Positions 3,922-42,456 of a stretch of DNA of 52,320 bases are shown here, piece by piece (positions within the stretch are counted from its first letter, which is position 1; every line of letters starts with the position of its first letter). The stretch is from a virus (Duplodnaviria > Caudoviricetes): positions 1 to 52,320 of IMG/VR virus record IMGVR_UViG_3300011336_000270; one strand, written 5' to 3'. A program made the translations under genes and the position numbers. The notes below the pieces were generated by a model, which saw nothing but the letters and a program-made list of their open reading frames with translations, was not told the origin of the DNA and did no database searches.

Positions 3922-4047
3922 ATCGGAGTGAAACCCCGATAACCGTAAGATTAAATTTGAAATGCTAATACAATATCATCCCTTGCATGGTAAAGGTTTC
4001 ACCTGTCATTCAGACAGTCTTACGGCCATGTGAGGGATGTCCTTTTT
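3922..4047 (+). ncRNA. Structured leader RNA, copy 1 (attenuator / C4-antisense-like architecture)
   Basis: Hairpin 3922-3940; long stem 3977-3990/4026-4039 plus U-tract; enclosed GGTTTCAC and TCTTACGG are complementary to upstream GTGAAACC and CCGTAAGA. Confidence 0.65.
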
Positions 4048-4050
4048 ATT

Positions 4051-4908
4051 ATGAGCAAATACGGAAACTTGAAGCGGGGAGATACGAGAGAAGACGGAAT
4101 GATTTTTTGGGCTTACACAGATGGAAAAGAAAGATGGGTGACAAGTGGCAAGTTCGATGAACTAAGGCAAAAAATTTCCGATAATTTCAAGAGAGAATTA
4201 CCTGAAAAAAAGTTTAAGCGCGGGGATCGACGCGAAGATGGGAAAATATTTTGGGCATACAGAAAAACATATAAAAACTTTGAGTGCTGGATGAGTGAGG
4301 ATGCCTACAATAAAGAACTAAATAGGTCTATGGTTTATCTTGCTAATCGTAAATTCAAGAAGCCAAAAATTAAAGTTGGTTTCATGAGGCAAGATGGACT
4401 TGTTTATATGGGATATTATAAAGGATGCAAAAATGGACAGAGATGGGTATCGCCTGAAAAATATGAGTCAAAGAAAAGAAAAGAAAGAAATAGATTTGCT
4501 ACATTATATCACAGCAACGAAGAGTTTAAAAAGAAAGTAAAAGAAAATTCTAAAAATGTTTCAAAAAAACGAATGGCTATTGATCCGCTTTTTAAATTAA
4601 AGGTTCATTGCCGATCAATGATTTCAACTGCTTTTAGTAGAAAAAATTTTACAAAGAGAAGCAAAACGCAAAACATAGTTGGTTGTTCTTTTGAAGAACT
4701 AAAAAGACACATTGAATCTCAATTTAAATCAGGGATGAATTGGGAGAATCACGGAGAATGGCACATCGACCACATAATGCCGCTTTCAATGGCAAAAACC
4801 GAAGATGAGATGATAAGATTGAATCACTATAGAAATCTTAGACCTATTTGGGCCAAAGAAAATTTAGTAAAAGGACATAAGCAAATAAACGATCTTGTTT
4901 TGTTTTAA
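4051..4908 (+). CDS. Free-standing HNH homing endonuclease with three N-terminal GDxREDG repeats
   Basis: C-terminal GCSFEELKRHIESQF...WHIDHIMPLS...LNHYRNLRPIWAKENLVKG HNH motif; AT-rich; ATG 4051 preferred. Confidence 0.88.
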   Translation: MSKYGNLKRGDTREDGMIFWAYTDGKERWVTSGKFDELRQKISDNFKRELPEKKFKRGDRREDGKIFWAYRKTYKNFECWMSEDAYNKELNRSMVYLANRKFKKPKIKVGFMRQDGLVYMGYYKGCKNGQRWVSPEKYESKKRKERNRFATLYHSNEEFKKKVKENSKNVSKKRMAIDPLFKLKVHCRSMISTAFSRKNFTKRSKTQNIVGCSFEELKRHIESQFKSGMNWENHGEWHIDHIMPLSMAKTEDEMIRLNHYRNLRPIWAKENLVKGHKQINDLVLF

Positions 4909-4920
4909 TTTAAAAAAACA

Positions 4921-4957
4921 AAAACCCCGTGGTGAACTTAATCGCCACGGGGTTTTG
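4921..4957. terminator. Bidirectional intrinsic terminator
   Basis: AAAACCCCGTGG...CCACGGGGTTTT with A- and T-tracts on each side, between convergent genes. Confidence 0.85.
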
Positions 4958-4967
4958 CTTTTAGTTC

Positions 4968-5222
4968 TTATTTGTTTTTATCTTCATCTGGCGGCCTTCT
5001 TTCCATGCCCACCCTATACAAAAGGAATGCAAGGCTTAAATGTTTAATAGCCTCACTGCCCTCTTGATACCTTGCGCCAGTTCGGATAATCATTTGACTA
5101 AGCAAATGTGCCGTGCTGGCGAAGGCGTGAATCGCTTCATCCTTCTTTGCATCATTGGTTGTTGGGAACGAGAAGATCGTTTTAAGACTCTCGTTCAGTT
5201 CGTTTGCTGGGTTGTTTTCCAT
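4968..5222 (-). CDS. Small helical protein, possibly a distant Acb2/Tad1-like fold
   Basis: ORF coupled to the upstream gene; pattern LxxxFxF...AxxLxxxI...ExSxAIxxLxxA. Confidence 0.6.
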   Translation of the reverse strand: MENNPANELNESLKTIFSFPTTNDAKKDEAIHAFASTAHLLSQMIIRTGARYQEGSEAIKHLSLAFLLYRVGMERRPPDEDKNK

Positions 5223-5224
5223 AA

Positions 5225-6175: not shown

Positions 6176-6178
6176 GTG

Positions 6179-6388
6179 TTATTTGTTTTGTTTAAGGACT
6201 TCGTTTGCTCTCTCTAGGTGCATTACATGGTTTCTTACGACTTTGAGTCTGTTCCTGCAATCATAAAGCCTGTCTTTGGCGGCAGCTATTTCGGAGGTCA
6301 GAACTTCAATTTCGCTGGTTAGTTCTTCTTCTTCTTTAATCAAATCAGTAAGAACTGATTGTATTTCTGGTGTGTATTTAGTTTTCAT
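6179..6388 (-). CDS. Short coiled-coil protein
   Basis: Heptad pattern; in operon. Confidence 0.7.
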   Translation of the reverse strand: MKTKYTPEIQSVLTDLIKEEEELTSEIEVLTSEIAAAKDRLYDCRNRLKVVRNHVMHLERANEVLKQNK

Positions 6389-6617
6389 GTGTTTTGATTG
6401 TGAATTTCATTAAGGCTATGAGGACATTTCCTCTTGGTTGAACGCTATATTCTTTGTCCAATGCAAGCCAGCGACTCACTTGCACGGCTCCGCTCCTGCT
6501 TTCCGAGATTTTCTCCTCATCAGGCAGATAGCTGTTGAGGATACGAGGCATATCCTTAATTAGAATACCCTCGTTCCTCATGCGTTCTAAGACGCGCTCG
6601 ATGACATCATTTACCAC
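6378..6617 (-). CDS. Small HTH-like protein
   Basis: VQVSRWL...QPR resembles the XRE/Cro recognition-helix region; in operon. Confidence 0.55.
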   Translation of the reverse strand: MVNDVIERVLERMRNEGILIKDMPRILNSYLPDEEKISESRSGAVQVSRWLALDKEYSVQPRGNVLIALMKFTIKTHEN

Positions 6618-6620
6618 GGA

Positions 6621-8917: not shown

Positions 8918-8930
8918 ACAATAAACCTAA

Positions 8931-10087: not shown

Positions 10088-13000
10088 TCAAGGAGTTTTT
10101 GAAATGTCAGTCAGAACTTTCGGCATTTCTTTTCCAATCGCCCTGATTTCTTTGATCGGAACTTTATTCTCGTTGAGCTTTGATCGGCGCAAAACTTCAT
10201 CGCTGACTTGGTATGGAACATAGCATCCTTTGCTGATTGCAATGGCTTCTTTCTTGCTGATTCCAATATCAGTCATCAGTCGGATAGCCTCTGCTGGACT
10301 GGCTCCAGCCCTACGAACTGCCATGTAGTCACGATACATATCATTCCAGATTTCGTAGCGAGTCTGCTCTGATCTGCGATAGGCATCTACCTGTTCTTGC
10401 TCATCCACTCTGCGTCTGCGGGTGGCAACATCTCGGAAGATACGCTCAGATTCGTTTGCTGCTCTGCTGAATTCCCAAGCCTTGTTGGAGAATGCAGCCT
10501 TCATGTCAAGAGTCTCGAAACGAATACCAGTCAACTCAGCCGCGATCTCTTTTGCTGGAGCGGGAGCGCGGGTTCCGACAGTCTCACCTTGAATTGCAGG
10601 AATGATTCTCTCACGCAATCTAGTAATGGTTCCCGGTGTGAATGTCTTTCCAAAGATGTGCAACATGATCTTGCTCGTCTTGGTTGTGATGTCATCCTGC
10701 GGGTTGTAGACTTGCTTTCCAGTTTCGGTGCGGTTCCTCATCGCATCGGCGATAGTAGCCGTGACAGGTTGCTCGCTTGAGAACGGAGATAAGAATGAAC
10801 CTAGTGCCTGCGCGGCGATCTCCTCTGGCTTATCTCCCTTGGCAAATCCAGACATCATAGCAATGAACGGATCGGTCATCGCATTGTATGGATTGATGTA
10901 GGAGACATTGATGAAATTGTATGTCCCGTCTTTTGACTTCGGCATCCAAGCAAGTGATGCGTCTTTAGCCCAAGGCGGCAGCATTCGGCGAACATCTTCC
11001 TCTTCTTCATCGCCGATTCCAGATGCAAGTTTACTGAGAAGGTTAATGCCAAATGCCCCCATAGATAGGGTTGTCATGGCTCCAGCGAGTCTCTTGATGC
11101 CTTCCGCCTTATGCTCTGGAGTTGGCCCATTGATGTCCTCGAAAGCATATCGCAAGTTGTGGAACGATGTGCGGAATGTCTCGTAGAAGAAGGTAGCGAA
11201 CGGCCCAACGAATGGTTGTCGGCGGAACAAGCGAAGAGCTTCGGAAGACTGAGAGTAGGTTGGGTAAGTGTCCCGTGTTCTCTCTGCTGCGATGGACTGA
11301 GCGGTTTGTTTGTCCATGCCTTTGTTCATGCGCTGGATTCGCTTCGTCTCATTCAACCATCCTACTAGTTTACCGAACTCGTCTGTCTTCTGGTAAAGTT
11401 CTTGGGCAGACTTAACGCCCTTTAGATACATACGAGTCAGAACGAATTGCTTTGTGAATTCATCTGGCCCGATGTCATCGAATGTCTCCAGCCCGACATC
11501 TTGGAATGCCGTGCGGAGTTCTCCAGCGTAAGCATTCTCGTTTACCAGCCCTTGCCCTGCGGCTAGCTTTACCAACTCCCGCTTGGCATCTTCTTGTGAA
11601 ATACCTTTCTCTTTTGCTATAGCGTCAATCTCTTGGCGGATTACGCGCCAGTTGTAGTGACCATTGAATACAAAGAACGCTGGCTGACCTAGCATATTTC
11701 TCATCTGAGTGAGAACAGAGCCAACAGTCAGATTTAGTTTTCCGACTGCGTTCAACCAAGCTAGGACATAAAGACCGGGGTTTTCTCTAGCGTCATATCC
11801 CTTACCGAACTCCTCGAAAGCCTTGGCGATCTCTGGTGTAGTGCGGAGTCCATTGAGCGGAGACATCGTGCGTGATTCCTCTGCTGCGATCTGAGTATTG
11901 AATCCTTTTGGCGCGTCCTTTTCTGTGAACAAGAACTCACCAGTCCCTTTAGCCTTTACCTCATTCAAGAACTTCTGGTCTGAGACAAACCTAGAAATCT
12001 TGCCGATAGTATTAGCGTAATTGAAAATAACATTGGTATTCTCGCCCATCACTTCGCGTAGAACCTTTGGCACTTTCGCCCTCTCCATCATTACAGTTAG
12101 GTCTTTTGCCCCTAGCTTTCCTCCGCGCTTGCGAAGCCCTTCAGCATCACTTGCCCAGTCGTTGAGCATATTGCGAAGCTCACGATCTGCTATCTCGATA
12201 GTAGCTTCTGGGTCGTTCTTGAGTTGCTGTTGATACAAGAAGTTCCTAGCGGCGGTTAGCTTCTCGGTTGGAATCTTGTTTATCCAGTTCTTGTCTGTGA
12301 AAATCTTATAGCTACGGGTCAGATATACGCCAAGATTTTCGGAAATCTTAGCGGACAATTCATCTGGCAATACATTGAGATCAACCAACTGCCTAGACAT
12401 GGCGTCAATGTGTTGCCTCATGCGGGTCAATGGCTCACGCACGGGTTCTGGCATGGTATTTATATCAATCTTACCAGCCAACGCATCGTTTAGTTGCTGA
12501 ACAAACTCTGGCGGAACAGAGACAAGACCTTTCGCAATCATCTCCATCTTTGAAATACCAAATACTTCGCTGATGCCAGCATACAAATCCTTGATAGCAA
12601 ACTCAGCTTCCTTCTGCTCCCTAGATAGAGCTGCGTTTCGTTTAACCCAAGATTGGAATACTGCCTTTGGTAGCCAGCCTTCTTTAGTAAAGTATTTGCG
12701 AAGGTTCTTCTCTGCAAATTCTGCTACGGGATTCTTTGGCGCGAAGGCTAGTGGCTTAACCTTCTTCTGCTTCATCTTGTTTAGGATGGCAGTATCTGCG
12801 CGGAGTTTGTATTTGCGGACATCGTAATTAGAAATGCCTAGCTCTTTAGCTACCTGATCCTCGGTCTTGCCTTCGTTGACTAGCTTATTGAAGACATCAA
12901 AGACTGTGGTTCCAGCCTCCTTCACGGCAGAATCAACTAGGCTTTCTTGCTCTTGAGCCTGCTGGACTAGCTGCTGCGTTTGCTCATCTGGAGTAACGGG

Positions 13001-16000
13001 ATCGGTTATCGGTTTCTGTGGAGCTTGTTTTGCTGGCTTCTTGGGTGGCTCCTCGCCTCTGCCAAATGTCACCGCGCCTCGCTCACCCTTACCGGGGAGG
13101 TAGCCTGCCATCTCTTCTAGCTTCGCAGGGAACCCACTCACCGCTTCCCATACATCAGCGAGGAACTGGCGCACCGCATCACCGAACCTTTGCACCATCT
13201 GCTTGGCCCAAGACCCGAACTCCATCCCTGCCTCGTAGATGTTCTGCCCTGCTTGGATCAAGTCTTCCCGTGATGGGATTAGGACGCCACCTGCTTCCCT
13301 TTTGCGCTTAGATGGCGTCAATGGGGCCGCTCTATTTACTTCTTTGTTTTTGAATCGCAGGAATGGATCAACATTTGATTCAATGTAATATGCTGGATTT
13401 TCAATTACATCTTGCTTAAATTCATTTGCTGGCACAGACATGAGATCGTCAATAATTCCCTCATATCTTTGCGCCATTTCTTCACGCCCAGCCTTGCGTT
13501 CTACATCAGCTTTCTTTTTGTATCTTCCGACTTCTTTATCTCGCTCGCGCAATGCTTCGTCAGCAAATTTAATAGCTTCTGCATTACCTTCGGGTGCTGC
13601 TGGCGTTATCGTTTCCGATACTGCGGGGGCTTTAGATAGTATTGTTCTGTCGTAAGCATTAACTAATTCAGTTTCATCACTTGAAATTTTTTCTCTAATT
13701 CTATTTCGGGCTGCGATGGCATTTGCTTTTCCCGCTGATCCACCAATAGCCTCACCTAATGATGCGTAGTTCTGCAATTCTTTCAGTGATCCTTCATATT
13801 GAATTATTGCTCTATCAAGAATTTCGTTATCACCATAAGCAGCTAAAGCATTTTTTATTTTTTCTTTCTTATTTTTTTTGTTTTGTGTTGAAATTTTTCT
13901 TTCTTCCAACAAAGATCGCAATGTATTTTCAATTTGAAGTGGCGTTTGGATTTCCACATCATCCATTACTCGCTTTATTTCAGCATTAGTAATTTTTGAT
14001 GTTTTTTTTCTGGCGGAAAGGTAGCTGGCTTTCAAGCCAAAAAGAGGTGTGTTTTTCCTAACGAGTTTAGAAAAGTTTGGAATCTTATCTATTTCAGCAA
14101 GTGTTTCTGGAGGGACAATCGAAAGAACTTGTTCTTCAATAGTAGGCGCAACCTCTTCGGCGGGTGCTTCTGTTACAGCAGGAGTCTCGGCTACGGGGGC
14201 TTGATATACATAGACATCGCCTTGCTTGGTGTAGCCTTCAGGGAGCGGGACATTATTAGATTCTACAACTGCGGCAGATACTGGTTGAGGGCTTACATCT
14301 TTGATAAATCCTTCAGATTGGAACGCTGGGCCTGTTCTGACTCTGCCATTTTCTAATGTGTAGAATGTTCCTTTCTGTGAAACCTTAATATCATTACCCT
14401 GTATATCCTTCCATACAATAGGGTCAGCTTCTGGGGTTATTGTTTCGAGTAGCTGGGAGCGATACTTTGGCAGCAATTCATTATATCTTGCCTCGTCTTT
14501 TTTAGAAAACTTGACTCCCTTCACTTTGCCTTGCGCTTGTCCTCGCCTTTCCATCAAGTTCCTTAGTTCAGCGAACTCAACTTCCTCTACAGGCGCAGGC
14601 TTGACAGCGGGAGCCTCGGCGACTGGTGGTGCTGGCCTGCGTCGGACTCCTCCAAACGCATCATACACACCTGTCTCCCCACCATATACCATCCCAGCTT
14701 CTTGCTCTGCAATGCTTGGGATTGTCGGCCTCGCGAGTTCTTTTGGCAGCCTAGCTGGCTTCCTAGTTGCCGCGCCAAATACATCAAACACCCCCGGCTC
14801 TCCTCCGTATGCGGCCTCGGCGGTCTGCTCCTCAATGCTTGGCATCGCTGGAAGCCTTACTTTCTTTTCGGCGGGTGCAGCAATCTCTTTGGCTAACTCA
14901 ATCTGCTGTTGCTCGGCGGTAGTTATCGGTAACGATAATCCAGTAGGCAGAGTCTCGTTGATCTTGGTAATCTCATCGGTGTTATCAACGATAGTTTGCT
15001 GGGCAGCCTTCCCTTCTTCAGACTCAACTCCAAACTTGTTGATGATAGCTAGAGAATCTTTGTTCTCTTGCTCTAGGATATTTGCTTTATCTAAATTAGC
15101 GCGAACTTCTGGATCATCTACAGGAATGGAAAGATCACGGGATTCAAGGTCAGCTTCTTTCTCGATGTCCACTTGTTCTTTCTGAAGCGGACTCATCACG
15201 ATAGTCGCACCACCAGCAGATACGCCACCGATCAATGCTTCGCCTAGCGCGGCCTTGGGTTGAATCTCTAGTCCCTTCTCTGTGAGAATAGTTTCGCCTG
15301 TTTGCTGGGCTAGTGCTTGCGCCCCTTCGGTAGCTCCCTCGCCAAGGAAGGATGCCGCGATTCTTTTGGTCAAAGCACCAACTGCCTTCTCTCCACCGGG
15401 AAGATACTTCGTTCCAATAGCATTCAGCGCACCGCTAGTCCCTGCTGTAGTCCAAGCATAGGCCAAGTCTTCGCTATTCGGGATTTCTCTACCATTGTTC
15501 TTGGCTCGTTCTTGGGCGACTGGGCCGACGATCTGTGCAGCCTCAAACAATGCTGGGCCAGTAAACATACCAATACCTGCACCAACTGCGGTTCCAGCAC
15601 CGGGAACTACTGAGCCAGCAGCCCCGCCAATGACTCCGCCAGCAGCCCTAGATGCGACACTACCTGCTAGTTGTCCGACCTGTTCAACGATAGCGCGAGG
15701 TAGATATTGGAAGGCAAATCCTCCGAGTTGAGCTTCGCCAGCTTGTGGTTCCATGAATCTCTGTGCCGCTGGAACATAGCCTTCTGGTTGTTCTACTGCG
15801 CCTTTAAGTGCAGCACCAACTGCTGGCATACCAAGAGTCTCGGCGGTAACGCCCATCGCTTGCAATGGTTGAGCGATGCCAGATTTAAGCGCGGCTCCAA
15901 GCTGAGATACTTCTTGTTCTACCGAAGTTCCTGCTGGTTCTTCAACAAGTTCAAATGGAAGATTGGGATCAAAGCCAACCTCCTCAACTTCCTCGAAAGG

Positions 16001-16021
16001 TTGATTCGGATCAAAAGCCAT
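10088..16021 (-). CDS. Large internal virion / DNA ejection protein (1977 aa)
   Basis: Last gene of the virion operon; N-terminal FDPNxPFE repeats, a Gly/Ala-rich membrane-like region and a long helical C-terminus typical of podovirus ejection proteins. Confidence 0.75.
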   Translation of the reverse strand: MAFDPNQPFEEVEEVGFDPNLPFELVEEPAGTSVEQEVSQLGAALKSGIAQPLQAMGVTAETLGMPAVGAALKGAVEQPEGYVPAAQRFMEPQAGEAQLGGFAFQYLPRAIVEQVGQLAGSVASRAAGGVIGGAAGSVVPGAGTAVGAGIGMFTGPALFEAAQIVGPVAQERAKNNGREIPNSEDLAYAWTTAGTSGALNAIGTKYLPGGEKAVGALTKRIAASFLGEGATEGAQALAQQTGETILTEKGLEIQPKAALGEALIGGVSAGGATIVMSPLQKEQVDIEKEADLESRDLSIPVDDPEVRANLDKANILEQENKDSLAIINKFGVESEEGKAAQQTIVDNTDEITKINETLPTGLSLPITTAEQQQIELAKEIAAPAEKKVRLPAMPSIEEQTAEAAYGGEPGVFDVFGAATRKPARLPKELARPTIPSIAEQEAGMVYGGETGVYDAFGGVRRRPAPPVAEAPAVKPAPVEEVEFAELRNLMERRGQAQGKVKGVKFSKKDEARYNELLPKYRSQLLETITPEADPIVWKDIQGNDIKVSQKGTFYTLENGRVRTGPAFQSEGFIKDVSPQPVSAAVVESNNVPLPEGYTKQGDVYVYQAPVAETPAVTEAPAEEVAPTIEEQVLSIVPPETLAEIDKIPNFSKLVRKNTPLFGLKASYLSARKKTSKITNAEIKRVMDDVEIQTPLQIENTLRSLLEERKISTQNKKNKKEKIKNALAAYGDNEILDRAIIQYEGSLKELQNYASLGEAIGGSAGKANAIAARNRIREKISSDETELVNAYDRTILSKAPAVSETITPAAPEGNAEAIKFADEALRERDKEVGRYKKKADVERKAGREEMAQRYEGIIDDLMSVPANEFKQDVIENPAYYIESNVDPFLRFKNKEVNRAAPLTPSKRKREAGGVLIPSREDLIQAGQNIYEAGMEFGSWAKQMVQRFGDAVRQFLADVWEAVSGFPAKLEEMAGYLPGKGERGAVTFGRGEEPPKKPAKQAPQKPITDPVTPDEQTQQLVQQAQEQESLVDSAVKEAGTTVFDVFNKLVNEGKTEDQVAKELGISNYDVRKYKLRADTAILNKMKQKKVKPLAFAPKNPVAEFAEKNLRKYFTKEGWLPKAVFQSWVKRNAALSREQKEAEFAIKDLYAGISEVFGISKMEMIAKGLVSVPPEFVQQLNDALAGKIDINTMPEPVREPLTRMRQHIDAMSRQLVDLNVLPDELSAKISENLGVYLTRSYKIFTDKNWINKIPTEKLTAARNFLYQQQLKNDPEATIEIADRELRNMLNDWASDAEGLRKRGGKLGAKDLTVMMERAKVPKVLREVMGENTNVIFNYANTIGKISRFVSDQKFLNEVKAKGTGEFLFTEKDAPKGFNTQIAAEESRTMSPLNGLRTTPEIAKAFEEFGKGYDARENPGLYVLAWLNAVGKLNLTVGSVLTQMRNMLGQPAFFVFNGHYNWRVIRQEIDAIAKEKGISQEDAKRELVKLAAGQGLVNENAYAGELRTAFQDVGLETFDDIGPDEFTKQFVLTRMYLKGVKSAQELYQKTDEFGKLVGWLNETKRIQRMNKGMDKQTAQSIAAERTRDTYPTYSQSSEALRLFRRQPFVGPFATFFYETFRTSFHNLRYAFEDINGPTPEHKAEGIKRLAGAMTTLSMGAFGINLLSKLASGIGDEEEEDVRRMLPPWAKDASLAWMPKSKDGTYNFINVSYINPYNAMTDPFIAMMSGFAKGDKPEEIAAQALGSFLSPFSSEQPVTATIADAMRNRTETGKQVYNPQDDITTKTSKIMLHIFGKTFTPGTITRLRERIIPAIQGETVGTRAPAPAKEIAAELTGIRFETLDMKAAFSNKAWEFSRAANESERIFRDVATRRRRVDEQEQVDAYRRSEQTRYEIWNDMYRDYMAVRRAGASPAEAIRLMTDIGISKKEAIAISKGCYVPYQVSDEVLRRSKLNENKVPIKEIRAIGKEMPKVLTDISKTP

Positions 16022-33874: not shown

Positions 33875-36396
33875 TGTTTAGGTTGAGTTGGGGTCTGTGG
33901 TGTCTGTTCTTCAGTTTCCATTTCAGTTTCTTCCATCTCAACTTCTTCGCCGGGAGTCTCGATCTCTTCTTCCTCGGTTTCTACCTCCTCGACTTCTTCC
34001 TCTTCTTCCATTTCTGGAGCTTCGGGAGCCTGTTGCATAGGCTGGGCTTTGCCCATTGTCTTTTGAATCTCGGCGCGAGCCTTGGCTTTCTGTAGCGCGA
34101 GTTGGGTAATACCCTGCTGTTTGCGTTGCTCTGTGCGCTGGGCGTGGCTGACAGATGCCTTGCCGATAGAGATGTCTGCGAGCTTCTGCTTGGTGTCGAT
34201 CTCGATACCAGACTTGGCCGCGAGGTATTGGAGCTTGATGTCTTCTTCGGACATTCCTTTGCCTTGACCCTGCTGTTCGCTCTGGAGCATTTCTTGGTAA
34301 ACGGAATTGATCTCGTCGCCCATCTTTCCAGCTTGTCCCATACCTTCCATGAATTGCTTGAGGAAGTCTTGCTTGGACTGGTCTTTGGCGATGAACTCCA
34401 CATGGGCCATGATGTGACCACCCTTGAACTGGATGGAACGGACAACCTTGGCGAGTTCGTTGACATCCGCCGCACCTTGCTGGATCGCCTGCATATTCGT
34501 TTGAATCTGCATCATCATGTCTTGGAAGTGACCAGTAGCGTGTTCGATGTGCGGGTCGGTTGGCAATACTGGGAAGTTTGCTGGGTTGACGAACACATCC
34601 GTCATGCCTGCGTTCTCGAAACCAATGATACGGGCAGTATCATCAATCTTGCTCATCTTCGTATTGCGATACCTAGCTACATTGTCCCGCCCCGCCAAAG
34701 CTGCGATGGCGTCTTTAACGGCATTCTCTTGTCCTTCGTTGGCTGGAGTAATGCTAGTAAGCGATACAAGTTTCTCCGCTGTGATGAGCTTGAAGCTAGG
34801 GCTTCCCGCTCCGTTGATGAGATTGCTTCGGATGCTGGTGATGTTCTTCCAAGCGGCAGCTTCTTTAGGAGTTCCAAGTTCCTCAAGAATTTCGTAGAAT
34901 TTTTTGACATACTCGTATCCCTCGTCATTGCGAGTTGAGGATACAAATCGGCGGTATAACTCACGGAAATATAAAGTTTCGCACTCGTTGAAACGCCTGA
35001 TTTGAGTTCCAGAAAGTTTTGCCGATTCCGCCGCATCGAGTTCCGCTTCGCCTTTAGTGCGTTGCGCTCCTCCTGCTGTTGGTGCATTGATGCGATACTG
35101 GCCGAGGCCGCGATAGAGATCGCCCATGTAGAACTGCATGAACTGCATTCCCTCGGCGACTGGCATCTGGAACCTGTTCTGTGTGAACTTGGCTCCGTCT
35201 GGCATAACGCTGATCGGAAGCCATTCCATCTGCTTGAGCATCTTGGTTGAGTCTGGCGAGCCGCCATCCAATAAAAGCATCGAGTTCAATCGAACGGCAT
35301 CTACAAGCCCGTTCATCGTGAAGTCATACTGGCGGCAGGCTACGAACGCCGCTTCTGCTTGGGACTTGATGTCGTGGAATAATCCACTACCCACTGAATC
35401 GGTGAGCATATAGAGGATTTGATCCCATTTGTCGAAAAGCCCGACATTAAGTTGGAGGAAACCATGCTGGTCACGGACAACCGCTTCGCTGACTTTTTCG
35501 TTGCCTTTGACATACTGGTTGATGTATTGGCTGATTGGGTTGTAGTCTTGGAGGATGACTGCTTTGCTGATTGTGCCGTCGAATTCCCTCCAGTAGATTT
35601 CGTAGAGGTCGATCTTTTGATTGACCGAGAGTGACCAATTGAACCCGCTTTCAGAGATCGTGCGGAAGAAGTCTTCCCGCGTTTTGTTGTGTTCCGAGAA
35701 TGCTTTGTGGAATCGGATGGCGTCGATGACTGCATCAACATTCCACCCAAGGTCTTCGGCGGCAGATCGGTTTTCGATGATCTTGTAGAGTTGATATGGG
35801 GTGAGTCGAACTCGCCGCACAAATTCTTCCAGATTCGAAAAATCAACTTTGATGTCATCAGGGAACAAGAGGTCAGAAAGCGGAACATATTCCGGCATCC
35901 ATCCAAGAGGAGAGTGCCACATTCCGATGCCTTTTCCGTAGAGCAGCATCGACTCAAGTTCTTGCTCTTTGTTGTAGAGATACCCCGGCCATTCGCGGAT
36001 CGCTTTGTCAAACGCGAGCGTAATGTTTTCCGTGTGGACGAGTCTTTCTTTTTCATTGCCATATTTTGTTTCGATTGTTGCACAGGTTTGTCTTTCTGTA
36101 AGAATATCGTAGAAAGAACTTTTTTGATTACTTACAATGTAATCCATCTGACCCCAGTTCACATCTGATTGCCACGATAATTTCTTCTCTGACAACTTAC
36201 TATAACCTGTAGGCGGGAAGCGTTTGTAGCTACGAAATATTCGGATACGCTTATTTTCACGCCCGACATTGGCTAGTGACAAATTATTAGCAATATTATA
36301 TGCATGATTTGCAGATGATATTCTAGTGTTCGGAACTTCTCCGTCCGGCCCGAGTGATAATAAACTGAAGTTGTCTGACCCTACTTGAATTGGCAT
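33871..36396 (-). CDS. Portal protein (P22-like, long helical C-terminus)
   Basis: 841 aa; RTKGEAEL motif (compare TAxE in podoviral portals), Gln-rich barrel-like tail and acidic end; synteny. Confidence 0.75.
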   Translation of the reverse strand: MPIQVGSDNFSLLSLGPDGEVPNTRISSANHAYNIANNLSLANVGRENKRIRIFRSYKRFPPTGYSKLSEKKLSWQSDVNWGQMDYIVSNQKSSFYDILTERQTCATIETKYGNEKERLVHTENITLAFDKAIREWPGYLYNKEQELESMLLYGKGIGMWHSPLGWMPEYVPLSDLLFPDDIKVDFSNLEEFVRRVRLTPYQLYKIIENRSAAEDLGWNVDAVIDAIRFHKAFSEHNKTREDFFRTISESGFNWSLSVNQKIDLYEIYWREFDGTISKAVILQDYNPISQYINQYVKGNEKVSEAVVRDQHGFLQLNVGLFDKWDQILYMLTDSVGSGLFHDIKSQAEAAFVACRQYDFTMNGLVDAVRLNSMLLLDGGSPDSTKMLKQMEWLPISVMPDGAKFTQNRFQMPVAEGMQFMQFYMGDLYRGLGQYRINAPTAGGAQRTKGEAELDAAESAKLSGTQIRRFNECETLYFRELYRRFVSSTRNDEGYEYVKKFYEILEELGTPKEAAAWKNITSIRSNLINGAGSPSFKLITAEKLVSLTSITPANEGQENAVKDAIAALAGRDNVARYRNTKMSKIDDTARIIGFENAGMTDVFVNPANFPVLPTDPHIEHATGHFQDMMMQIQTNMQAIQQGAADVNELAKVVRSIQFKGGHIMAHVEFIAKDQSKQDFLKQFMEGMGQAGKMGDEINSVYQEMLQSEQQGQGKGMSEEDIKLQYLAAKSGIEIDTKQKLADISIGKASVSHAQRTEQRKQQGITQLALQKAKARAEIQKTMGKAQPMQQAPEAPEMEEEEEVEEVETEEEEIETPGEEVEMEETEMETEEQTPQTPTQPKQ

Positions 36397-37097
36397 AATA
36401 ATTTACTTCCTTTTTTAAGGTTTTCGATGGCCCACAATGGTCGCAGATTCGTGTAATGATTCAAGCGCAAAATTTGTTCTTCAGATTTTGCTGAAGCCAA
36501 TGGAACAATGTGGTCTATATGCCATTCGCTGCGATTATCCCAAGACATATTCGGTTGGAATTGAGATTGAATATGGTTCAGAAATTCATTGAATGTGCAT
36601 CCAAGTATTTCTTCGGTTCTATTCTTTTTAATAAATTTTCTTTTTCTCAATGAAATTCCAATAAGATTTCTTATATCTTGGCTGGCTTTAAAGAGAGGAT
36701 CGCAATTCCTTCTTTCATAAAAATATTGGTTAAGTCGATCTTTATTCTGCTCTCTATATCTTTTTTTATTTAGCTTATTTCTTTCTTGATTGGAGGCATT
36801 CCAGTCCCTTGTTCTTTGTTTCAGCTTTTCCGAGTTTTTTGAGTAATACTCCAGATGATATTCTTTTAATTTCTGCTTGTTGTTTTGCCTGTATGAAGCA
36901 TCTTGTTGACGCTTCTTATCCTTATTATTCTTTGTCCATCTCGCTTGCTTAAGCCTTGCTTTTTCGAGTCGCTTTACATACTGCTCTGGAGTTGACCAGT
37001 ATTCTGGATTTTTTCGTTTGTGTTTATATTCGATAAATACCATTCCATCCTCGCGGACATCTCCCATTTTATATTTTATTGGATTGGCAGTAATCAT
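36381..37097 (-). CDS. Free-standing HNH homing endonuclease (paralog of 4051..4908)
   Basis: GDVREDG N-terminus; LGCTFNEFLNHIQSQF...WHIDHIVPLAS...LNHYTNLRPLWAIENLKKG. Confidence 0.88.
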   Translation of the reverse strand: MITANPIKYKMGDVREDGMVFIEYKHKRKNPEYWSTPEQYVKRLEKARLKQARWTKNNKDKKRQQDASYRQNNKQKLKEYHLEYYSKNSEKLKQRTRDWNASNQERNKLNKKRYREQNKDRLNQYFYERRNCDPLFKASQDIRNLIGISLRKRKFIKKNRTEEILGCTFNEFLNHIQSQFQPNMSWDNRSEWHIDHIVPLASAKSEEQILRLNHYTNLRPLWAIENLKKGSKLLCQFK

Positions 37098-37491: not shown

Positions 37492-37528
37492 CTTGCCTTG
37501 CGCGTGAAGATGGGGTTTCATCCTTCCC

Positions 37529-39597: not shown

Positions 39598-39598
39598 A

Positions 39599-39916
39599 TT
39601 ATTTGAATTGATAAACTAGGTAGCCTTGCTCTTTCGCCCACGCTGGGTTGTCATGCACTCGCTGGTGGTCTTCTCGACAAAGAGCCATGAAAGTGCGCTT
39701 CTCACAAAGGTTTTTCCCTCGTCCGCTTTTGTGGTGTATGTCGGTTGCTTCTCTACCGCAGATTTCACATCTGTAATCTTTTTCTTCAAGATACTCTCTC
39801 CTTACCCTACTGTATTCAATGCTTCGCTTTTTGAGTCTGGCTGAAACTGGGTTGAGCTTTCCTCCTCTTTTCTTGAATCCGCTTTTTGCCTTAAGTGGAG
39901 TTTTGCGTCTGAGCAT
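39599..39916 (-). CDS. Small HNH nuclease with zinc finger
   Basis: CEICG...DIHHKSGRGKN...MALCREDHQRVH. Confidence 0.8.
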   Translation of the reverse strand: MLRRKTPLKAKSGFKKRGGKLNPVSARLKKRSIEYSRVRREYLEEKDYRCEICGREATDIHHKSGRGKNLCEKRTFMALCREDHQRVHDNPAWAKEQGYLVYQFK

Positions 39917-40155
39917 AATTCAATAATTTTACCGATCTGTTCTTTCTTGAGAACCGACTTTGCTGATGTTTCGATTTGATTGATAAGGCTACCAGTCACT
40001 CCGATCTTGTCACCTAGTTCACGCACGGAAAACCCAAGGCGCAAACGAGCATCACGCAAGTGTGCGCCAAACATCTTTCTAGCATTATGCTTGATGCTTC
40101 TGCTATGTTCAATAGCCGATAGGTAGCTATTGTATGCGACTTCTAACTGATGCAT
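39802..40155 (-). CDS. XRE-family HTH transcriptional regulator
   Basis: FGAHLRDARLRLGFSVRELGDKIGVTGSLINQIET. Confidence 0.85.
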   Translation of the reverse strand: MHQLEVAYNSYLSAIEHSRSIKHNARKMFGAHLRDARLRLGFSVRELGDKIGVTGSLINQIETSAKSVLKKEQIGKIIELCSDAKLHLRQKADSRKEEESSTQFQPDSKSEALNTVG

Positions 40156-40163
40156 ACCTATGG

Positions 40164-40208
40164 AGTATAGACAAACATATTGACAGGTCAATCTTTTTTT
40201 TGTAGTAT
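40164..40208. promoter_or_regulatory. Overlapping divergent sigma-70-like promoters
   Basis: Plus strand: TTGACA(40180)-17-TAGTAT(40203). Minus strand: TTGACC(40191)-16-TATACT(40169). The two -35 boxes form the near-palindrome ATTGACAGGTCAAT. Confidence 0.7.
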
Positions 40209-40216
40209 TGGAGGCT

Positions 40217-40612
40217 ATGGATAACCACAACAGCAACATAGATTTGGACATGACAGCATTCAAGTTTCTTGAGCTTGCTCGAAAGTCCGTTCTGATAACA
40301 AATATGTCTCTCGCTGAAGCGATGGGACAAGGAATCTTTTCGACTCACGAAGTCTTCAATGGCGATGGAGGCTATATGATTATGGGAGTCCGGCCAAACT
40401 CTACCGCGCTCGCAGCGACCTACTCTGGCAAACGAATACTCTGGTCTGAACTCGCCCTAATCAAAGACGAAGACCTAGAACTCCATCACAAGCTCCATGC
40501 TGTAGACTGCCAAGATGACCATATGTCTGATCTCACTTGGACAAACCTCGTCGATCAAATCGAAGAATGGGTGAAGTGCGAGCGTGAGGAGATTGACCTA
40601 GATTATCGGTAA
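40217..40612 (+). CDS. Hypothetical protein
   Basis: ATG 40217 lies 8 nt after the -10 box. Confidence 0.7.
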   Translation: MDNHNSNIDLDMTAFKFLELARKSVLITNMSLAEAMGQGIFSTHEVFNGDGGYMIMGVRPNSTALAATYSGKRILWSELALIKDEDLELHHKLHAVDCQDDHMSDLTWTNLVDQIEEWVKCEREEIDLDYR

Positions 40613-40619
40613 CAATAAA

Positions 40620-41384
40620 ATGAAAATACAATTACACCACGGTGATTGCTTGGAAGAGATGAGGAACATTCCTGATGGAAGTATAGATATGGTTCTGTGC
40701 GATCCACCGTATGGGACGACCGCCTGCAAGTGGGATTCGGTGATTCCGTTTGAACCGCTGTGGGCGCATTACAAGCGCATTGCCAAGAAGAACGCGGCCA
40801 TTGTCCTCACGGCGAGTCAGCCGTTCACAAGTGCGCTGGTGATGTCGAATCTGAAGATGTTCAAGCATGAGTGGATTTGGATTAAAAATCGTGGATCAAA
40901 CTTTGCAAACACAGTGCGCGAGCCGATGAAGGAGCATGAATCCGTGCTGGTGTTCGCTGAAAAGAAGTGGACATACAACAAGCAGATGCAGGAGCGCACG
41001 GGCGGTGGTGCTGACCGCGTGAAATACGGGGTGGCCTTCCGCTCGCAGTCAGACAACTACCGCGAGTTTGAGGGGAGAGACCATCAAAAACTCCCAGAAA
41101 TGCGGGTTCCGTCATCGTGGCAGAAGTTCAACTGCGAAGTCGGACTGCACCCCACGCAAAAGCCCGTTGCTCTGATGGAATATCTTATCCGCACATACAC
41201 CAACGAAGGAGAGACAATAATGGATAATGCTATGGGTAGCGGCACAACAGGCGTAGCCTGTGTGAATACTGGTAGGAATTTCATTGGAATTGAGAAAGAT
41301 AAAACATATTTTGATATTGCAACCAAAAGGATAAACGATCACAAGTCTCAAATTGAATTATGCCTAAACCAATCGAAGGTCTAA
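40620..41384 (+). CDS. DNA methyltransferase (N6A/N4C, beta class), copy 1
   Basis: GDCLE, DPPY, HPTQKP and MGSGTTG motifs. Confidence 0.93.
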   Translation: MKIQLHHGDCLEEMRNIPDGSIDMVLCDPPYGTTACKWDSVIPFEPLWAHYKRIAKKNAAIVLTASQPFTSALVMSNLKMFKHEWIWIKNRGSNFANTVREPMKEHESVLVFAEKKWTYNKQMQERTGGGADRVKYGVAFRSQSDNYREFEGRDHQKLPEMRVPSSWQKFNCEVGLHPTQKPVALMEYLIRTYTNEGETIMDNAMGSGTTGVACVNTGRNFIGIEKDKTYFDIATKRINDHKSQIELCLNQSKV

Positions 41385-41497
41385 TACCACCGGGAGGACA
41401 TCACTACATGGAGAGTGATGTTAAAATTACTGGCAGTAGTTATAAAAACCGACTAGAACAAAAGCCTTGCAAGGAATTGAAAAAATGGAATATGTAG
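41360..41497 (+). pseudogene. Probable truncated gene remnant between the two methyltransferases (45 aa)
   Basis: MPKPIEGLIPPGGHHYMESDVKITGSSYKNRLE shares a PxGGxxY...GxS pattern with the N-terminus of 37114..37491, then runs into AT-rich sequence. Confidence 0.4.
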
Positions 41498-41511
41498 ATT
41501 TTTCAGAATAA

Positions 41512-42282
41512 ATGAATATAGATTTAATCCATGGAGATTGCTTGGAGAAGATGCGAGATATTCCAGACGGTAGCATTGATATGATTCTATGCGATTTGCC
41601 TTACGGAACGACCGCCTGCAAATGGGACAGCGTGATACCCTTCGAGCCGCTTTGGGAGCACTACCGTCGAGTCTGCAAGCGCAATGCTGCGATTGTGCTA
41701 ACCGCATCGCAGCCGTTCACATCTGCTCTTGTGATGAGTAACGCCAAAGCATTCCGCCACGAATGGATATGGAAGAAAGACAAAGGTGGAAACATTGCGT
41801 CGCTAAAACATCAACCCTCGAAAGTTCACGAAACCATTTTGGTGTTCGGGTTTGAGCCTTCTAGATATAAACCACAGATGGAAGTCAGACCGGAGTCCAA
41901 CAGGCGAAATAATGCGCCAAGAACAAACCATGTCGGCGTGCAAGGCGAGAAACCTTTTAGAGTGGAGCACAGTCGCGGAGCAGACGCGGTGAAGTACCCG
42001 ACGAGTGTGAAGGAATATAATAGCGTGCGCGGTGGAGTCCACCCTACCCAAAAGCCAGTCGCCCTAATGGAGTATCTAATCCGAACTTACACCAACGAAG
42101 GCGAGACGGTGCTTGACAATACTATGGGCAGCGGGACGACTGGCGTAGCTTGCGTGAACACCAATCGCAACTTTATAGGGATCGAAATGGACAAAACATA
42201 TTTTGAGATAGCCAAAAAAAGAATACAGCAAGCTAAAGAAAATTTAGGGCTGTTTATCGGTAACGATAAAAATAATTATTGA
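41512..42282 (+). CDS. DNA methyltransferase (N6A/N4C, beta class), copy 2
   Basis: GDCLE, DLPY, HPTQKP and MGSGTTG motifs. Confidence 0.93.
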   Translation: MNIDLIHGDCLEKMRDIPDGSIDMILCDLPYGTTACKWDSVIPFEPLWEHYRRVCKRNAAIVLTASQPFTSALVMSNAKAFRHEWIWKKDKGGNIASLKHQPSKVHETILVFGFEPSRYKPQMEVRPESNRRNNAPRTNHVGVQGEKPFRVEHSRGADAVKYPTSVKEYNSVRGGVHPTQKPVALMEYLIRTYTNEGETVLDNTMGSGTTGVACVNTNRNFIGIEMDKTYFEIAKKRIQQAKENLGLFIGNDKNNY

Positions 42283-42308
42283 CCTGTCACGAACAGTAGT
42301 GATAGGGT
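42279..42308 (+). promoter_or_regulatory. Promoter of the replication operon
   Basis: TTGACC (42279), 18 bp spacer, extended -10 TGaTAGGGT; a palindrome copy lies 10 bp upstream. Confidence 0.55.
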
Positions 42309-42314
42309 TAGCGC

Positions 42315-42456
42315 GTCTGAGAAATCAGACCTCGGCGTAGGAACCGAGTGATAAAAGAAATTAAATTAACAAACAAATATATGATCCCTTGTAGAGGATT
42401 ATTCCTACTGCGTCAGTTGCCGCTTTCTTTTGACTCTACAAGGGGTCGCCTTTTTT
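42315..42456 (+). ncRNA. Structured leader RNA, copy 2 (same architecture as 3922-4047)
   Basis: GNRA hairpin 42315-30; hairpin 42331-48; stem 42383-96/42434-47 plus T6; enclosed TTCCTAC and TTTCTTTT are complementary to upstream GTAGGAA and AAAAGAAA. Confidence 0.65.

Follow-up and report, generated by a model that had tools for sequence, protein, structure and literature searches.

A candidate family of phage leader RNAs with two covarying long-range pairings and a P1 c4-like build

Results

We analysed a 52,320-nt stretch of phage DNA (IMG/VR record IMGVR_UViG_3300011336_000270, here called the window), in which two similarly built elements precede genes; all features given below lie on the plus strand unless stated otherwise. 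Copy 1 (3922-4047) stands in front of an endonuclease VII/HNH-like gene (4051-4908; phrog_1035, E = 5.6e-13), probably a homing endonuclease. The two closest homologues of this gene bear the same leader type. Copy 2 (42315-42456) is followed by a gene for a 93-aa protein with no family match (42460-42741), an O-like/DnaD-like replication initiator gene (42720-43523; phrog_391, E = 4.5e-20) and a DnaB-type replicative helicase gene (43530-44804; PF03796, E = 2.9e-33). These profile matches agree with a first-pass annotation of this DNA, which had named initiator plus DnaB and an endonuclease as the gated genes.

The copy 1 promoter (3887-3914; TTGACA, 16-nt spacer, TATCTT) gave 10 of 12 matches in a consensus scan. 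Direct reading and folding place the 5-bp hairpin P1 at 3922-3940, with segment a (GTGAAACC, 3928-3935, by direct reading) inside its loop. Segment b (CCGTAAGA, 3943-3950; direct reading and script check) comes next and is directly followed by TTAAATT, which starts at 3951; an upstream AUG lies at 3962. The c4-like 3' domain (3977-4039; reading, folding, 55.8 bits) has a 14-bp closing stem that includes two G-U pairs (3977-3990 with 4026-4039) and encloses a' (GGTTTCAC, 3995-4002), the 15-nt hairpin P3 (4003-4017) and b' (TCTTACGG, 4018-4025). A TCC tail and a T5 tract were read directly behind the stem (4040-4047, T5 at 4043-4047), and an ATG follows at 4051.

Upstream of copy 2, the palindrome TATCGGTAACGATA (42255-42268, no strand assigned) lies ∼10 nt before the -35 element. 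It is one of 17 sites in the genome (0.06 expected) and is conserved at the same location upstream of the leader in relatives. The copy 2 promoter (42279-42308; TTGACC, 18-nt spacer, TAGGGT preceded by TG as TG-A-TAGGGT) was assigned by eye; the consensus scan did not flag it. The -35 element and the spacing are conserved in relatives, with the family consensus TTGACA then TAGT(T/G)T. Folding and RNAalifold placed a 6-bp hairpin with a GAAA loop, P0, at 42315-42330, the likely transcript 5' end. P1 (42331-42348; reading, folding and covariation) has an 8-nt loop holding segment a (GTAGGAA, 42337-42343), and segment b is AAAAGAAA (42353-42360). A conserved A-rich, G-free linker (42361-42380; TTAAATTAACAAA...) opens with TTAAATT at 42361. 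The c4-like 3' domain (42383-42447; reading, folding, 134.5 bits) consists of a 14-bp closing stem (42383-42396 with 42434-42447), a' (TTCCTAC, 42402-42408), the P3 hairpin within a 15-nt spacer (42410-42423) and b' (TTTCTTTT, 42424-42431). It is followed by a GCC tail and a T6 tract (42448-42456, T6 at 42451-42456), with an ATG at 42460.

Direct reading and scripts recovered in both elements all the parts that the first-pass annotation had described. The 14-bp length of the closing stem held in both copies; its start point did not, since the stem begins one pair before the position first described (57 sequences have G-C as the added pair, whereas copy 1 has C-G). Both copies folded into an identical nested structure, and the z-scores of their 3' domains were -5.4 and -3.0. 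When the 3' domain is folded to minimum energy, a' and b' remain unpaired; a is exposed in a hairpin loop. Cognate duplexes were calculated at -4.0 to -10.0 kcal/mol vs. -0.3 to -2.1 kcal/mol for cross duplexes of copy 1 with copy 2, in line with the earlier proposal that the copies are mutually orthogonal. P0 is present in copy 2 and in most relatives and is deleted from copy 1; it is retained in L129 and L130, two relatives of the copy 1 type. Script checks of the window found ATCCCTTG exactly twice, once per leader, and an a site closely followed by a b site in the two leaders only.

The family was assembled from 74 of 118 IMG/VR pattern matches and six members reached via neighbouring proteins, and comprises at least 64 distinct members. 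Covariation was assessed on 58 distinct sequences. Across these the homologues kept the complementarity: 97.1% of 2467 cells pair, and double changes occur at 27 of 44 pairs. Compensatory changes were found in seven helices, among them P0 (5/6 pairs), a/a' (5/7 pairs) and b/b' (7/7 pairs). None of 500 shuffles matched the observed pairing and covariation, and slid controls paired at 39-56%. Pairing of a with a' and of b with b' is far above chance. RNAalifold recovered P0, P1, the closing stem and P3 unaided. The six pattern-independent members (L129, L130, L192-L195) each have at least 6 bp in a/a' and in b/b'; their b/b' sequences are all unlike either window copy, the closing stems differ in L129, L130, L193 and L195, and L193 and L195 carry an additional a type, GTGGAAA/TTTCCAC. 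A few members have an imperfect b/b' (5 bp in L041 and in L032). The claim that the diverged copies share one architecture with covarying pairings is thereby extended to 58 sequences and the six independent members, and the sequence comparison identifies the two window elements as members of a large, previously unrecorded family of structured phage leaders.

The elements are promoter-proximal leaders, ∼140 nt in length and built from two domains. The first, on the 5' side, consists of the terminal GNRA hairpin P0, P1 with a 7-8-nt a in its loop, and a single-stranded 8-nt b. The 3' domain, of ∼70 nt and resembling P1 c4 and P4 CI RNA in kind, has a 14-16-bp closing stem that encloses exposed a' and b', one on each side of a small hairpin, and ends in an N-CC tail (GCC in 57/58, TCC in 1/58). 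The linker between b and the stem keeps both its length (∼21-31 nt) and its sequence, and the unpaired nucleotides of the P3 loop and the linker are strongly conserved. A U tract of 4-8 nt (58 sequences) and then a start codon follow immediately behind the closing stem in most members.

The most variable part of the RNA is b/b', with a column entropy of 1.1-1.2 bits vs. 0.39 in the unpaired linker, 0.12 in P3 and 0.09 in the lower stem. The 58 sequences comprise 19 b' types and 23 a/b combinations. Among 65 sequence pairs with no more than 5% difference outside b/b' (mean 2.8%), b/b' itself differs by 15%, and by at least 20% in 23 of the 65; gaps within the b region of the MAFFT alignment may inflate these divergence figures. 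Pairing lengths were 7.2 nt (cognate) vs. 4.3 nt (non-cognate) for b and 6.1 vs. 3.3 nt for a. By this comparison of sequences, b/b' behaves like a specificity determinant. A target of the a2/b2 type was not found within 400 nt downstream (cognate 2/58 vs. non-cognate 2.3%), and a script check of the genome found no other partner for a' or b'.

The first ORF behind the leader was initiator-like in seven of 10 representative types, HNH-like in one and a small unknown in two. A leader lies upstream at 6/6 evaluable loci that have a relative of the window's initiator, and the five complete related genomes contain exactly one leader copy each. From these associations, the gated gene would usually be a replication initiator. 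Our search for lysogeny genes found no integrase or resolvase, and two pattern scans of species-representative genomes found no true prophage copy. The earlier suggestion of superinfection immunity is therefore unsupported.

Discussion

In our best reading, to which we give a probability of about one half, the leader encodes on the sense strand a c4/CI-like antisense RNA that regulates the replication module. The 3' domain would be freed as a small RNA, with its 3' end formed at the U tract in the members that have one and its 5' end produced by RNase P-type cleavage at the stem base, where U-1 precedes a G+1 paired to C and the GCC tail follows. The a'/b' segments of this RNA would pair with a/b on newly made leaders of the same specificity, and the pairing would set the amount of transcription or translation entering the downstream gene. 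Because that gene is normally the replication initiator, the loop is proposed to be a gene-dosage-dependent negative feedback. The fast and always joint change of a/b and a'/b' would follow from their role as the specificity determinant. Against the antisense reading, a' and b' find their partners only within their own molecule, and the pairings could thus have a purely structural role.

The first-pass annotation had the pairings control termination. The a/a' and b/b' pairings do not overlap with the closing stem, and a simple terminator/antiterminator switch is not visible; since the pairings do not compete with the stem, such control has no structural basis so far. An alternative hairpin, formed by the upper 5' arm with the CCAC after it, was broken in several members when inspected by eye. 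Of the proposed attenuator family, the family stands; the attenuator is not a universal feature, because the U tract is degenerate in L130, L193 and L195.

The main alternative, possible although we consider it on the unlikely side, is a purely cis-acting leader, whose a/a' and b/b' helices would form pseudoknots and draw the 140-nt RNA into a compact body. Such a body could act as an attenuator that senses a protein or ligand, as a 5' cap that stabilises early mRNA, or as an RNA polymerase modifier; covariation would then only keep the fold, with neither a trans-acting RNA nor "specificity". Both partners are always in one transcript, with no other target found, and the order a, b, a', b' gives the crossing helices typical of pseudoknots. 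Only 1 nt separates b' from the 3' arm, so b/b' could stack on the closing stem. The preserved length and sequence of the b-to-stem linker speak for this reading, and the invariant unpaired nucleotides of the P3 loop and linker suggest a binding pocket or tertiary contacts; leaders that bind a ligand or protein likewise show strongly conserved unpaired nucleotides next to helices that covary freely. With a single copy per related genome, cross-talk within one genome would normally be no issue. However, among close relatives b/b' changes ∼5 times faster than the remaining RNA and also faster than the unpaired linker, a pattern not expected of a helix in which every step takes two coordinated changes, unless changing is in itself favoured. 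The a and b types are moreover reshuffled in 23 combinations, an a in a hairpin loop together with unpaired a' and b' is the layout of known fast-pairing antisense systems, and no riboswitch or other Rfam family was matched.

A translation-coupled attenuator appears doubtful. In this reading a short leader ORF would begin at a conserved AUG in the closing-stem base, run across the entire 3' domain and stop at the main start codon; in copy 2 this possible ORF has 25 codons (42381-42458, on weak evidence), and its TAA stop lies 1 base before the main ATG. A ribosome on the leader ORF would melt the stem and so prevent termination, with handover to the main ORF by termination-reinitiation, and a/b pairing ∼22-29 nt upstream of the leader AUG would hinder ribosome loading. 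P1 c4 blocks icd translation by hindering ribosome loading. An ATG occurs at this place in 56/58 sequences and a TTG in one more, yet stem pairing begins with the G of this AUG, which could explain the conservation. Of 59 distinct elements, 35 have an ORF that stops -4 to +3 nt from the main ATG, 13 have one that shares the frame of the main ORF and nine have one that overlaps it; an early stop occurs in only one and a TTG in one. This geometry is partly automatic, as the stop cluster TAAAATGA ends any frame, and the openness of the ORF is weak evidence because the region is stop-poor in every frame (stops in frame +1 in ∼5/37 and in frame +2 in 16/37 sequences, the trivial TGA in ATGA excluded). 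The leader AUG is preceded by an A-rich, G-free stretch, as at the other starts of the phage (n = 39; A is 42% at -20 to -1 vs. 26% in the genome, with Shine-Dalgarno-like words at 5/39), and the main ORF, 0-7 nt behind the U tract, lacks its own Shine-Dalgarno sequence. Nevertheless, the peptide differs and is read in three reading frames, and the copy 1 type has no AUG: window copy 1, L129, L130, L193 and L195 have ATC, and of these only window copy 1 has another upstream AUG. It is hardly credible that the likeness arose by chance, or that the elements are just a terminator and a promoter whose RNA does nothing more. The closing stem with its U tract does resemble an intrinsic terminator, and terminator-like sites are common, but at least 64 distinct members with compensatory changes in seven helices, shuffles that never did as well and a motif that occurs just twice in the window all speak against it; the family covariation and the independently found members contradict it.

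For the antisense reading, the P1 module is among the closest known systems; it was read from the annotated record and the Rfam alignments (C4, RF01695; c4-a1b1, RF03163; clan CL00128). In the P1 record two hairpins abut; the second holds the 7-nt a1 in its 8-nt loop, and the 8-nt b1 follows after 7 nt. The 77-nt c4 RNA there has a long closing stem, leaves a' and b' exposed and carries ACC as its 3' tail. The leader family shares the spacerless 5' twin hairpin, the 7-nt a in the second hairpin's 8-nt loop and an 8-nt b soon after, as well as an RNA of ∼70-77 nt that has a long closing stem, exposes a' and b' and bears an N-CC tail. As in P1 and P7, the RNA is encoded on the sense strand immediately downstream of a promoter. 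The claim of a C4-like element holds for this architecture and fails for detectable membership: the Rfam covariance-model search matched no family, C4, c4-2 and c4-a1b1 included, and found no riboswitch, and in reverse the covariance model of the leader family did not recognise P1 c4. Because covariance-model similarity is absent in either direction, the likeness may be convergent. The isrK family had no match in the window or its relatives. IsrK of the Gifsy-1 prophage (RF01394), to which the P1 a1b1 region with its terminator scores 35.1 bits (under the gathering score of 50), illustrates that a twin hairpin of the a1b1 type can function as an RNA in its own right; unlike isrK, the leader family has no terminator directly after the twin hairpin.

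Several features set the two apart. P1 has b' in a hairpin loop and then a single-stranded a', which gives nested pairings, whereas the leader family has a single-stranded a', a hairpin and a single-stranded b', which gives crossing ones. P1 has functional targets a2/b2 before icd, which the leader family lacks, and an isrK-like terminator between a1b1 and c4, where the leader family has its 21-31-nt A-rich linker. The U tract and start codon behind the stem in most members are also unlike P1. In the temperate phage P1, c4 controls an antirepressor, whereas the leader family precedes a replication initiator, with lysogeny genes not found. In PMC5320573, C4 is described as being cleaved by RNase P at the stem's 5' end, with specificity from a'/b'; the joint shift of a/b and a'/b' among relatives resembles the difference between P1 and P7, and the leader 5' end would be G-A vs. 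the GGW described for C4. The preference of bacterial RNase P for U-1 and a 3' RCC is given in PMC4919922.

The comparison extends to replication control. In the antisense-RNA transcription attenuation of plasmid rep genes, known from pT181, pIP501 and pAMbeta1, a small RNA whose dosage tracks copy number decides terminator use before the initiator gene; these RNAs are counter-transcripts from the opposite strand that displace a pre-emptor helix. The leader family RNA is on the sense strand, and a competing helix was not found. The likeness to these plasmids is that a dosage-dependent small RNA would gate a terminator just before an initiator gene. The outcome of P4 CI RNA is premature termination, and CI also uses a downstream site, seqC; a downstream site of that type was not found in the leader family. 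According to PMC4825925, processing of the replication operon's leader yields P4 CI RNA, which pairs with the upstream seqA. By this description, the leader family resembles P4 CI both in having its RNA within an untranslated leader before replication genes and in its complementarity to an upstream site of the same transcript, which in P4 is seqA (PMC4825925).

Architecture of the Two Leader RNAs

Reading of the window sequence, which is the virus record in full (99% complete), confirmed both elements with the parts that the first-pass annotation had described. Copy 1 lies downstream of a TTGACA-16-TATCTT promoter on the plus strand. Its P1 hairpin (3922–3940) carries segment a (GTGAAACC) in the loop and is followed by segment b (CCGTAAGA, 3943–3950), TTAAATT and an A-rich linker. 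The closing stem (14 bp, 3977–3990 with 4026–4039) then encloses a′ (3995–4002), a 5-bp hairpin (4003–4017) and b′ (4018–4025), and the element ends with TCC, five T residues and the ATG at 4051. The promoter of copy 2, read by eye, is TTGACC-18-TAGGGT with a TG before the -10 element. Copy 2, also on the plus strand, starts with a hairpin with a GAAA loop, P0 (42315–42330), which had been missing from the earlier list of parts and is absent from copy 1. The order of the other parts is that of copy 1: a (42337–42343), b (42353–42360), the closing stem (42383–42396 with 42434–42447) and, inside it, a′ (42402–42408), the small hairpin P3 (42410–42423) and b′ (42424–42431). GCC, six T residues and the ATG at 42460 follow.

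Single-sequence folds gave the same nested structure for both copies, with a′ and b′ unpaired; these folds were used in place of pair counting on a three-sequence alignment (A5), which was dropped because MAFFT misaligned the closing stems. The two copies do not cross-pair. Within the window, ATCCCTTG occurs in the two leaders only, and so does an a site with a b site close behind. A covariance model of the family (R1) found the two copies alone, at 134.5 and 55.8 bits, and no third copy; its other matches in the window (≤20 bits) fell on ordinary terminators or on the copy-2 reverse strand. An extra GTGAAACC at 3840 was rejected as an a site, as ∼1.6 chance occurrences are expected per 8-mer and no b site lies nearby.

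Covariation of the Pairings in a Family of Leaders

To look for relatives, the closing-stem pattern was run on IMG/VR. At least 118 stretches matched, and among the matches listed 74 of 118 held the whole architecture, the other 44 being chance matches or unrelated repeats. The alignment A3 comprises 58 distinct sequences (56 from IMG/VR and the two window copies), on which pairs were counted for P0, P1, a/a′, b/b′, the closing stem and P3. Pairing was found in 97.1% of 2467 cells, with both-side changes at 27 of the 44 pairs over the 58 sequences. None of 500 shuffles matched any observed measure, and slid partners paired in only 39–56%. Compensatory changes were seen at 5 of 7 pairs in a/a′, 7 of 7 in b/b′, 5 of 6 in P0, 3 of 6 in P1 and 6 of 14 in the closing stem, the last being paired in 98.9% of cells in the family alignment. 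In this MAFFT alignment many gaps fall in the b region. RNAalifold recovered the nested helices independently and added a first stem pair, G-C in 57 sequences and C-G in copy 1. The covariance model that had been proposed for the copies was built as R1 from A3; it recovers members across related phages, with a single copy at every one of the 74 pattern loci and one per genome in five complete genomes (50–55 kb) of related phages.

Since the pattern fixes the lower stem and CCTTTT, part of the conservation seen there is built in. As the stem sequence was thereby fixed, further members were sought through neighbouring proteins. An exact-stem search for copy-1 relatives gave 0 matches; the endonuclease and initiator proteins then yielded relatives. 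At the loci of the two closest endonuclease-gene homologues (L129 and L130), a copy-1-type leader ends 2 nt before the start codon. A leader was present upstream at 6/6 evaluable loci encoding a relative of the window's initiator, four of them new members (L192–L195). All six members obtained without the pattern have at least 6 bp in a/a′ and in b/b′, including pairings first met there (a, GTGGAAA/TTTCCAC; b, GGAAAAAA/TTTTTTCC), and the closing stems of L129, L130, L193 and L195 differ greatly. These six offset the pattern bias only in part, and they are the strongest independent check of the pairings seen at first pass. The earlier claim that a/a′ and b/b′ covary is thus borne out by the pair counts on 58 sequences and by the six pattern-independent members, and the original observation extends to a new, well-supported RNA family. 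In the literature covered, that on c4-a1b1, c4-2 and c4-like phage RNAs, no description of the family was found.

One related leader from IMG/VR (L041) holds a natural mismatch, a b of GATAGAAA type facing a b′ of GTTTCTTC type with only 5 bp left. Recombination, a chimeric assembly or loss of activity in this copy could each account for it.

Within the RNA, variation is greatest in the b/b′ helix. Column entropy is 1.1–1.2 bits in b/b′ vs. 0.39 in the unpaired linker, 0.12 in P3 and 0.09 in the lower stem, and in 65 pairs of sequences a divergence of 15% in b/b′ goes with 2.8% in the rest. In all, 19 b′ types and 23 a/b combinations were seen. A helix that needs two matched changes per step and still outpaces its unpaired neighbours is as expected of a specificity determinant. 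The same fast-changing specificity pairing is described for P1 vs. P7 in PMC5320573.

Flanking Signals and Downstream Genes

The upstream region of the family consists of a palindrome (TTATCG-N4-CGATAA), an A tract, TTGACA and TAGT(T/G)T. At the other end, the stem and the U tract are separated by two or three unpaired bases (GCC), and 0–7 nt lie between the U tract and the start codon. The U tract is 4–8 nt long in 59/59 distinct pattern-selected members, for which the pattern itself demanded CCTTTT. It is degenerate in pattern-independent members (UUCUA in L130, CUCUU in L193 and L195). The GCC tail, found in 57/58 sequences, is retained in these three despite the degenerate U tract, which argues that the processed-RNA core rather than the terminator is the universal part.

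The first ORF behind the leader in ten representative types is initiator-like (7), HNH-like (1) or small and of no assigned kind (2). The same leader stands before unlike first genes, for example at the related loci L003 and L014, and such identical leaders before different genes indicate that the cassette marks a module boundary. The genes named at first pass were found behind the two window copies. Copy 2 precedes a 93-aa protein of unknown kind, behind which come an initiator (O/DnaD-like) and DnaB. Directly 5′ of the copy-2 cassette lie two N6/N4 DNA methyltransferase paralogues in tandem (40620–41384 and 41512–42282, plus strand).

Copy 1 precedes an endonuclease VII/HNH-like gene, the last of the plus-strand block. 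Copy-1-type leaders precede initiator genes in other phages (L193, L195), so the type is not bound to the endonuclease. The endonuclease gene at 4051–4908 (plus strand) has a paralogue at 36381–37097 (minus strand; phrog_1035 and phrog_28061), and a third, small HNH gene lies at 39599–39916 (minus strand). Of these three HNH-like genes, the one at 4051–4908 alone has a leader before it, as if this gene had moved along with one. At the point where the plus- and minus-strand blocks of genes run towards each other, a strong hairpin of 15 bp with A and T runs on its flanks (4921–4956) is likely to be a two-way terminator.

The shorter palindrome TATCG-N4-CGATA (mostly TTATCGTTAACGATAA) occurs 17 times in the window vs. 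0.06 expected, at 2994, 5896, 9967, 13607, 14924, 19869, 22408, 25795, 27534, 28155, 29615, 33419, 37098, 42255, 43981, 46045 and 49930. Several sites are 0–6 nt before start codons and some are within ORFs; one is just 5′ of the leader promoter and is kept there in relatives. The palindrome may be bound by a regulator of the phage, or may form a small hairpin in RNA.

The Phage and Its Possible Host

Integrase and resolvase domains (PF00589, PF00239) were absent from the 99%-complete genome, and the lysogeny circuit of a temperate phage, which P1-type immunity (immI) accompanies, was not found in it. One XRE-type HTH gene is present (39802–40263, minus strand). Prophage copies were sought with two patterns in genomes that represent bacterial and archaeal species (185,579 species per the tool description). 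The strict pattern gave 0 matches, and 0 of the 19 matches to a loose stem pattern were confirmed by R1. Among cultured phages no close relative was found; short matches were confined to the methylase and HNH genes, and DnaB was at most 28% identical. Most structural proteins tested had no PHROG match, which places the phage far from described ones. The structural block includes a 1977-aa ORF (10088–16021, minus strand).

Of 39 start codons, only 5 have a Shine-Dalgarno-like word before them, and A accounts for 42% of the 20 nt that precede starts. This composition suggests a host that relies little on Shine-Dalgarno pairing. The promoter of the family is also compatible with TTG-N20-TAnnTTT and, together with the SD-poor, A-rich starts, gives a hint of a Bacteroidota-like host. 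A peak of contig depth at 42207–42408 is the sum over contigs of related phages sharing the cassette. Three runs marked "RNA?" were discarded as RNA evidence, being judged probably DNA; their contigs show no starts or ends.

Proposed Mechanism and Alternatives

Bacterial RNase P prefers U at -1, G at +1 and a 3′ RCC, according to PMC4919922. The junction U|G...C-GCC at the stem base fits these preferences, from which we infer that the 3′ domain may be released from the leader as a separate RNA. The freed RNA would pair in trans with a and b on newly made leaders, so that a rising number of templates would lower expression of the replication module. At about one chance in three, we tentatively read the leader as a self-contained controller that senses gene dosage: it would be encoded inside the stem/terminator of its own target leader, cut at the tRNA-like U|G...GCC and, acting in trans, recognise the twin-hairpin a/b site. 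Its diversification into dozens of mutually orthogonal specificities, with ≥6 a types, ≥19 b types and 23 combinations observed, would then amount to something like incompatibility or heteroimmunity groups in aquatic phages that occur together, and the homing-endonuclease gene would have taken a leader copy along.

How such pairing might act on the downstream genes can be pictured in three ways. A pseudoknot formed in cis could hinder or help closure of the long stem, with the trans RNA blocking the pseudoknot. The P0-P1 domain could have a function of its own that is masked by the trans RNA. Pairing could also impede ribosomes at the AUG at the stem base, to which we assign a low probability. 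This AUG is conserved in 56/58 sequences behind a typical A-rich start region, and its frame nearly always reaches the main start codon, but stop codons are scarce in every frame of the leader region and the copy-1 type has no stem-base AUG. Copy 2 has a 25-codon ORF through the 3′ domain (42381–42458) with its stop 1 nt before the main ATG, and the 23-codon ORF of copy 1 (3962–4033) starts at another AUG and stops within the 3′ arm.

The main rival to the trans-acting controller is a purely cis-acting pseudoknotted leader, which the conserved unpaired nucleotides beside covarying helices also fit. No conserved helix competing with the stem was found in the family, and a/a′ and b/b′ are clear of the stem. 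Among candidate structures examined by eye, an alternative hairpin GTGG...CCAC is broken in two member types (L005 and L037), and a possible pairing between the 5′ arm and GGGGU in the P1 hairpin is not conserved in either window copy. An antisense promoter within the leader was likewise set aside, the minus strand of the family consensus offering, by eye, a weak TATAGT with a poor -35 element. A promoter scan gave no antisense promoter in the copy 2 leader and, near copy 1, one minus-strand row (3921–3892) over the promoter.

If the trans-acting controller is the true reading, sense-strand regulators of the c4/CI type are not peculiar to enterobacterial P1- and P4-like elements and would be a recurring phage means of metering replication genes, here in an uncultured, probably SD-poor lineage in which lysogeny genes were not detected. 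Its short two-site RNA pairings, orthogonal to one another and set in a single constant scaffold, would also make the family a ready natural set for studying the evolution of antisense specificity and a source of parts for synthetic regulation. If the leader acts in cis only, it would be a well-supported new class of structured RNA with a double pseudoknot, absent from Rfam 15.

Comparison With P1 c4, P4 CI and Rfam

No Rfam family reached its gathering score on the whole window. In searches of 3800–4200, 42200–42600 and the related loci L003 and L130, the families C4, c4-2 and c4-a1b1 (clan CL00128) gave 0 matches at E ≤ 10, and matches to any Rfam family at this threshold were chance rows far under the gathering score. 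The positive control, phage P1, scored 68.8 bits with C4 and 51.0 bits with c4-a1b1; R1 in turn scored P1 c4 at 1.3 bits. Membership of these Rfam families, which the first-pass annotation had proposed to check with Infernal, thus failed in both directions. Riboswitch and aptamer families gave no match either, the lone row being ZTP on the opposite strand of L003 (13.2 bits, gathering score 39).

The comparison with P1 is based on its immI region sequence aligned to Rfam. There, promoter P1c4 is followed by the c4-a1b1 motif (RF03163, 51.0 bits), two abutting hairpins; a1 (7 nt) occupies the 8-nt loop of the latter hairpin, and b1 (8 nt) comes 7 nt after a1. The C4 RNA (RF01695, 68.8 bits) is 77 nt long. 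Besides a closing stem of 17 bp it has a UUCG hairpin, another hairpin whose loop holds b′, a single-stranded a′ and the 3′ tail ACC. Likewise, P0 and P1 of the family abut, a (7–8 nt) sits in an 8–9-nt loop and b starts 7–10 nt after a; the 3′ domain, like C4, would be an RNA of ∼70–77 nt with a long terminal stem, a′ and b′ exposed in minimum-energy folds and an N-CC tail (GCC in 57/58 members, ACC in P1). The 5′ end of C4 is made by RNase P cleavage with a GGW start, as PMC5320573 describes. The stem base of the family has U-1 and a G+1 paired to C, whereas its start would be G-A instead of the GG of C4.

The two systems differ in the order of the segments. In P1 c4, b′ (positions 37–44) precedes a′ (51–57) and the pairings are nested, whereas a′ precedes b′ in 58/58 aligned members and the pairings cross. 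P1 has an isrK-like terminator between c4-a1b1 and C4; the family has none between its domains. The P1 twin hairpin with this terminator (131–212 of our immI sequence, L128) reaches 35.1 bits with Rfam isrK, whose gathering score is 50, and this links c4-a1b1 to IsrK/SeqA-type RNAs. P1 also carries a2 and b2 ahead of icd, as targets overlapping the ribosome-binding site of the gene under control. Such targets, a cognate a then b within 400 nt downstream, were found in 2/58 members vs. 2.3% of 2496 non-cognate controls, and no second a+b pair occurs elsewhere in the window. Unlike P1, most members have the U tract and start codon directly behind the stem, and the gene behind the leader is of another kind.

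As with P4 CI RNA, the leader is that of a replication operon (initiator and DnaB behind copy 2). P4 CI RNA has seqA upstream and seqC downstream, whereas the complementary sites here are upstream only. The missing similarity between the models, the crossed order, the lack of a2/b2 and the other differences led us not to file the family as a member of Rfam C4. The C4/CI-like interpretation offered at first pass is supported in part: the build is c4-like, the family falls outside Rfam C4, and attenuation and superinfection immunity would be putative roles. The family most likely works like c4 and CI.
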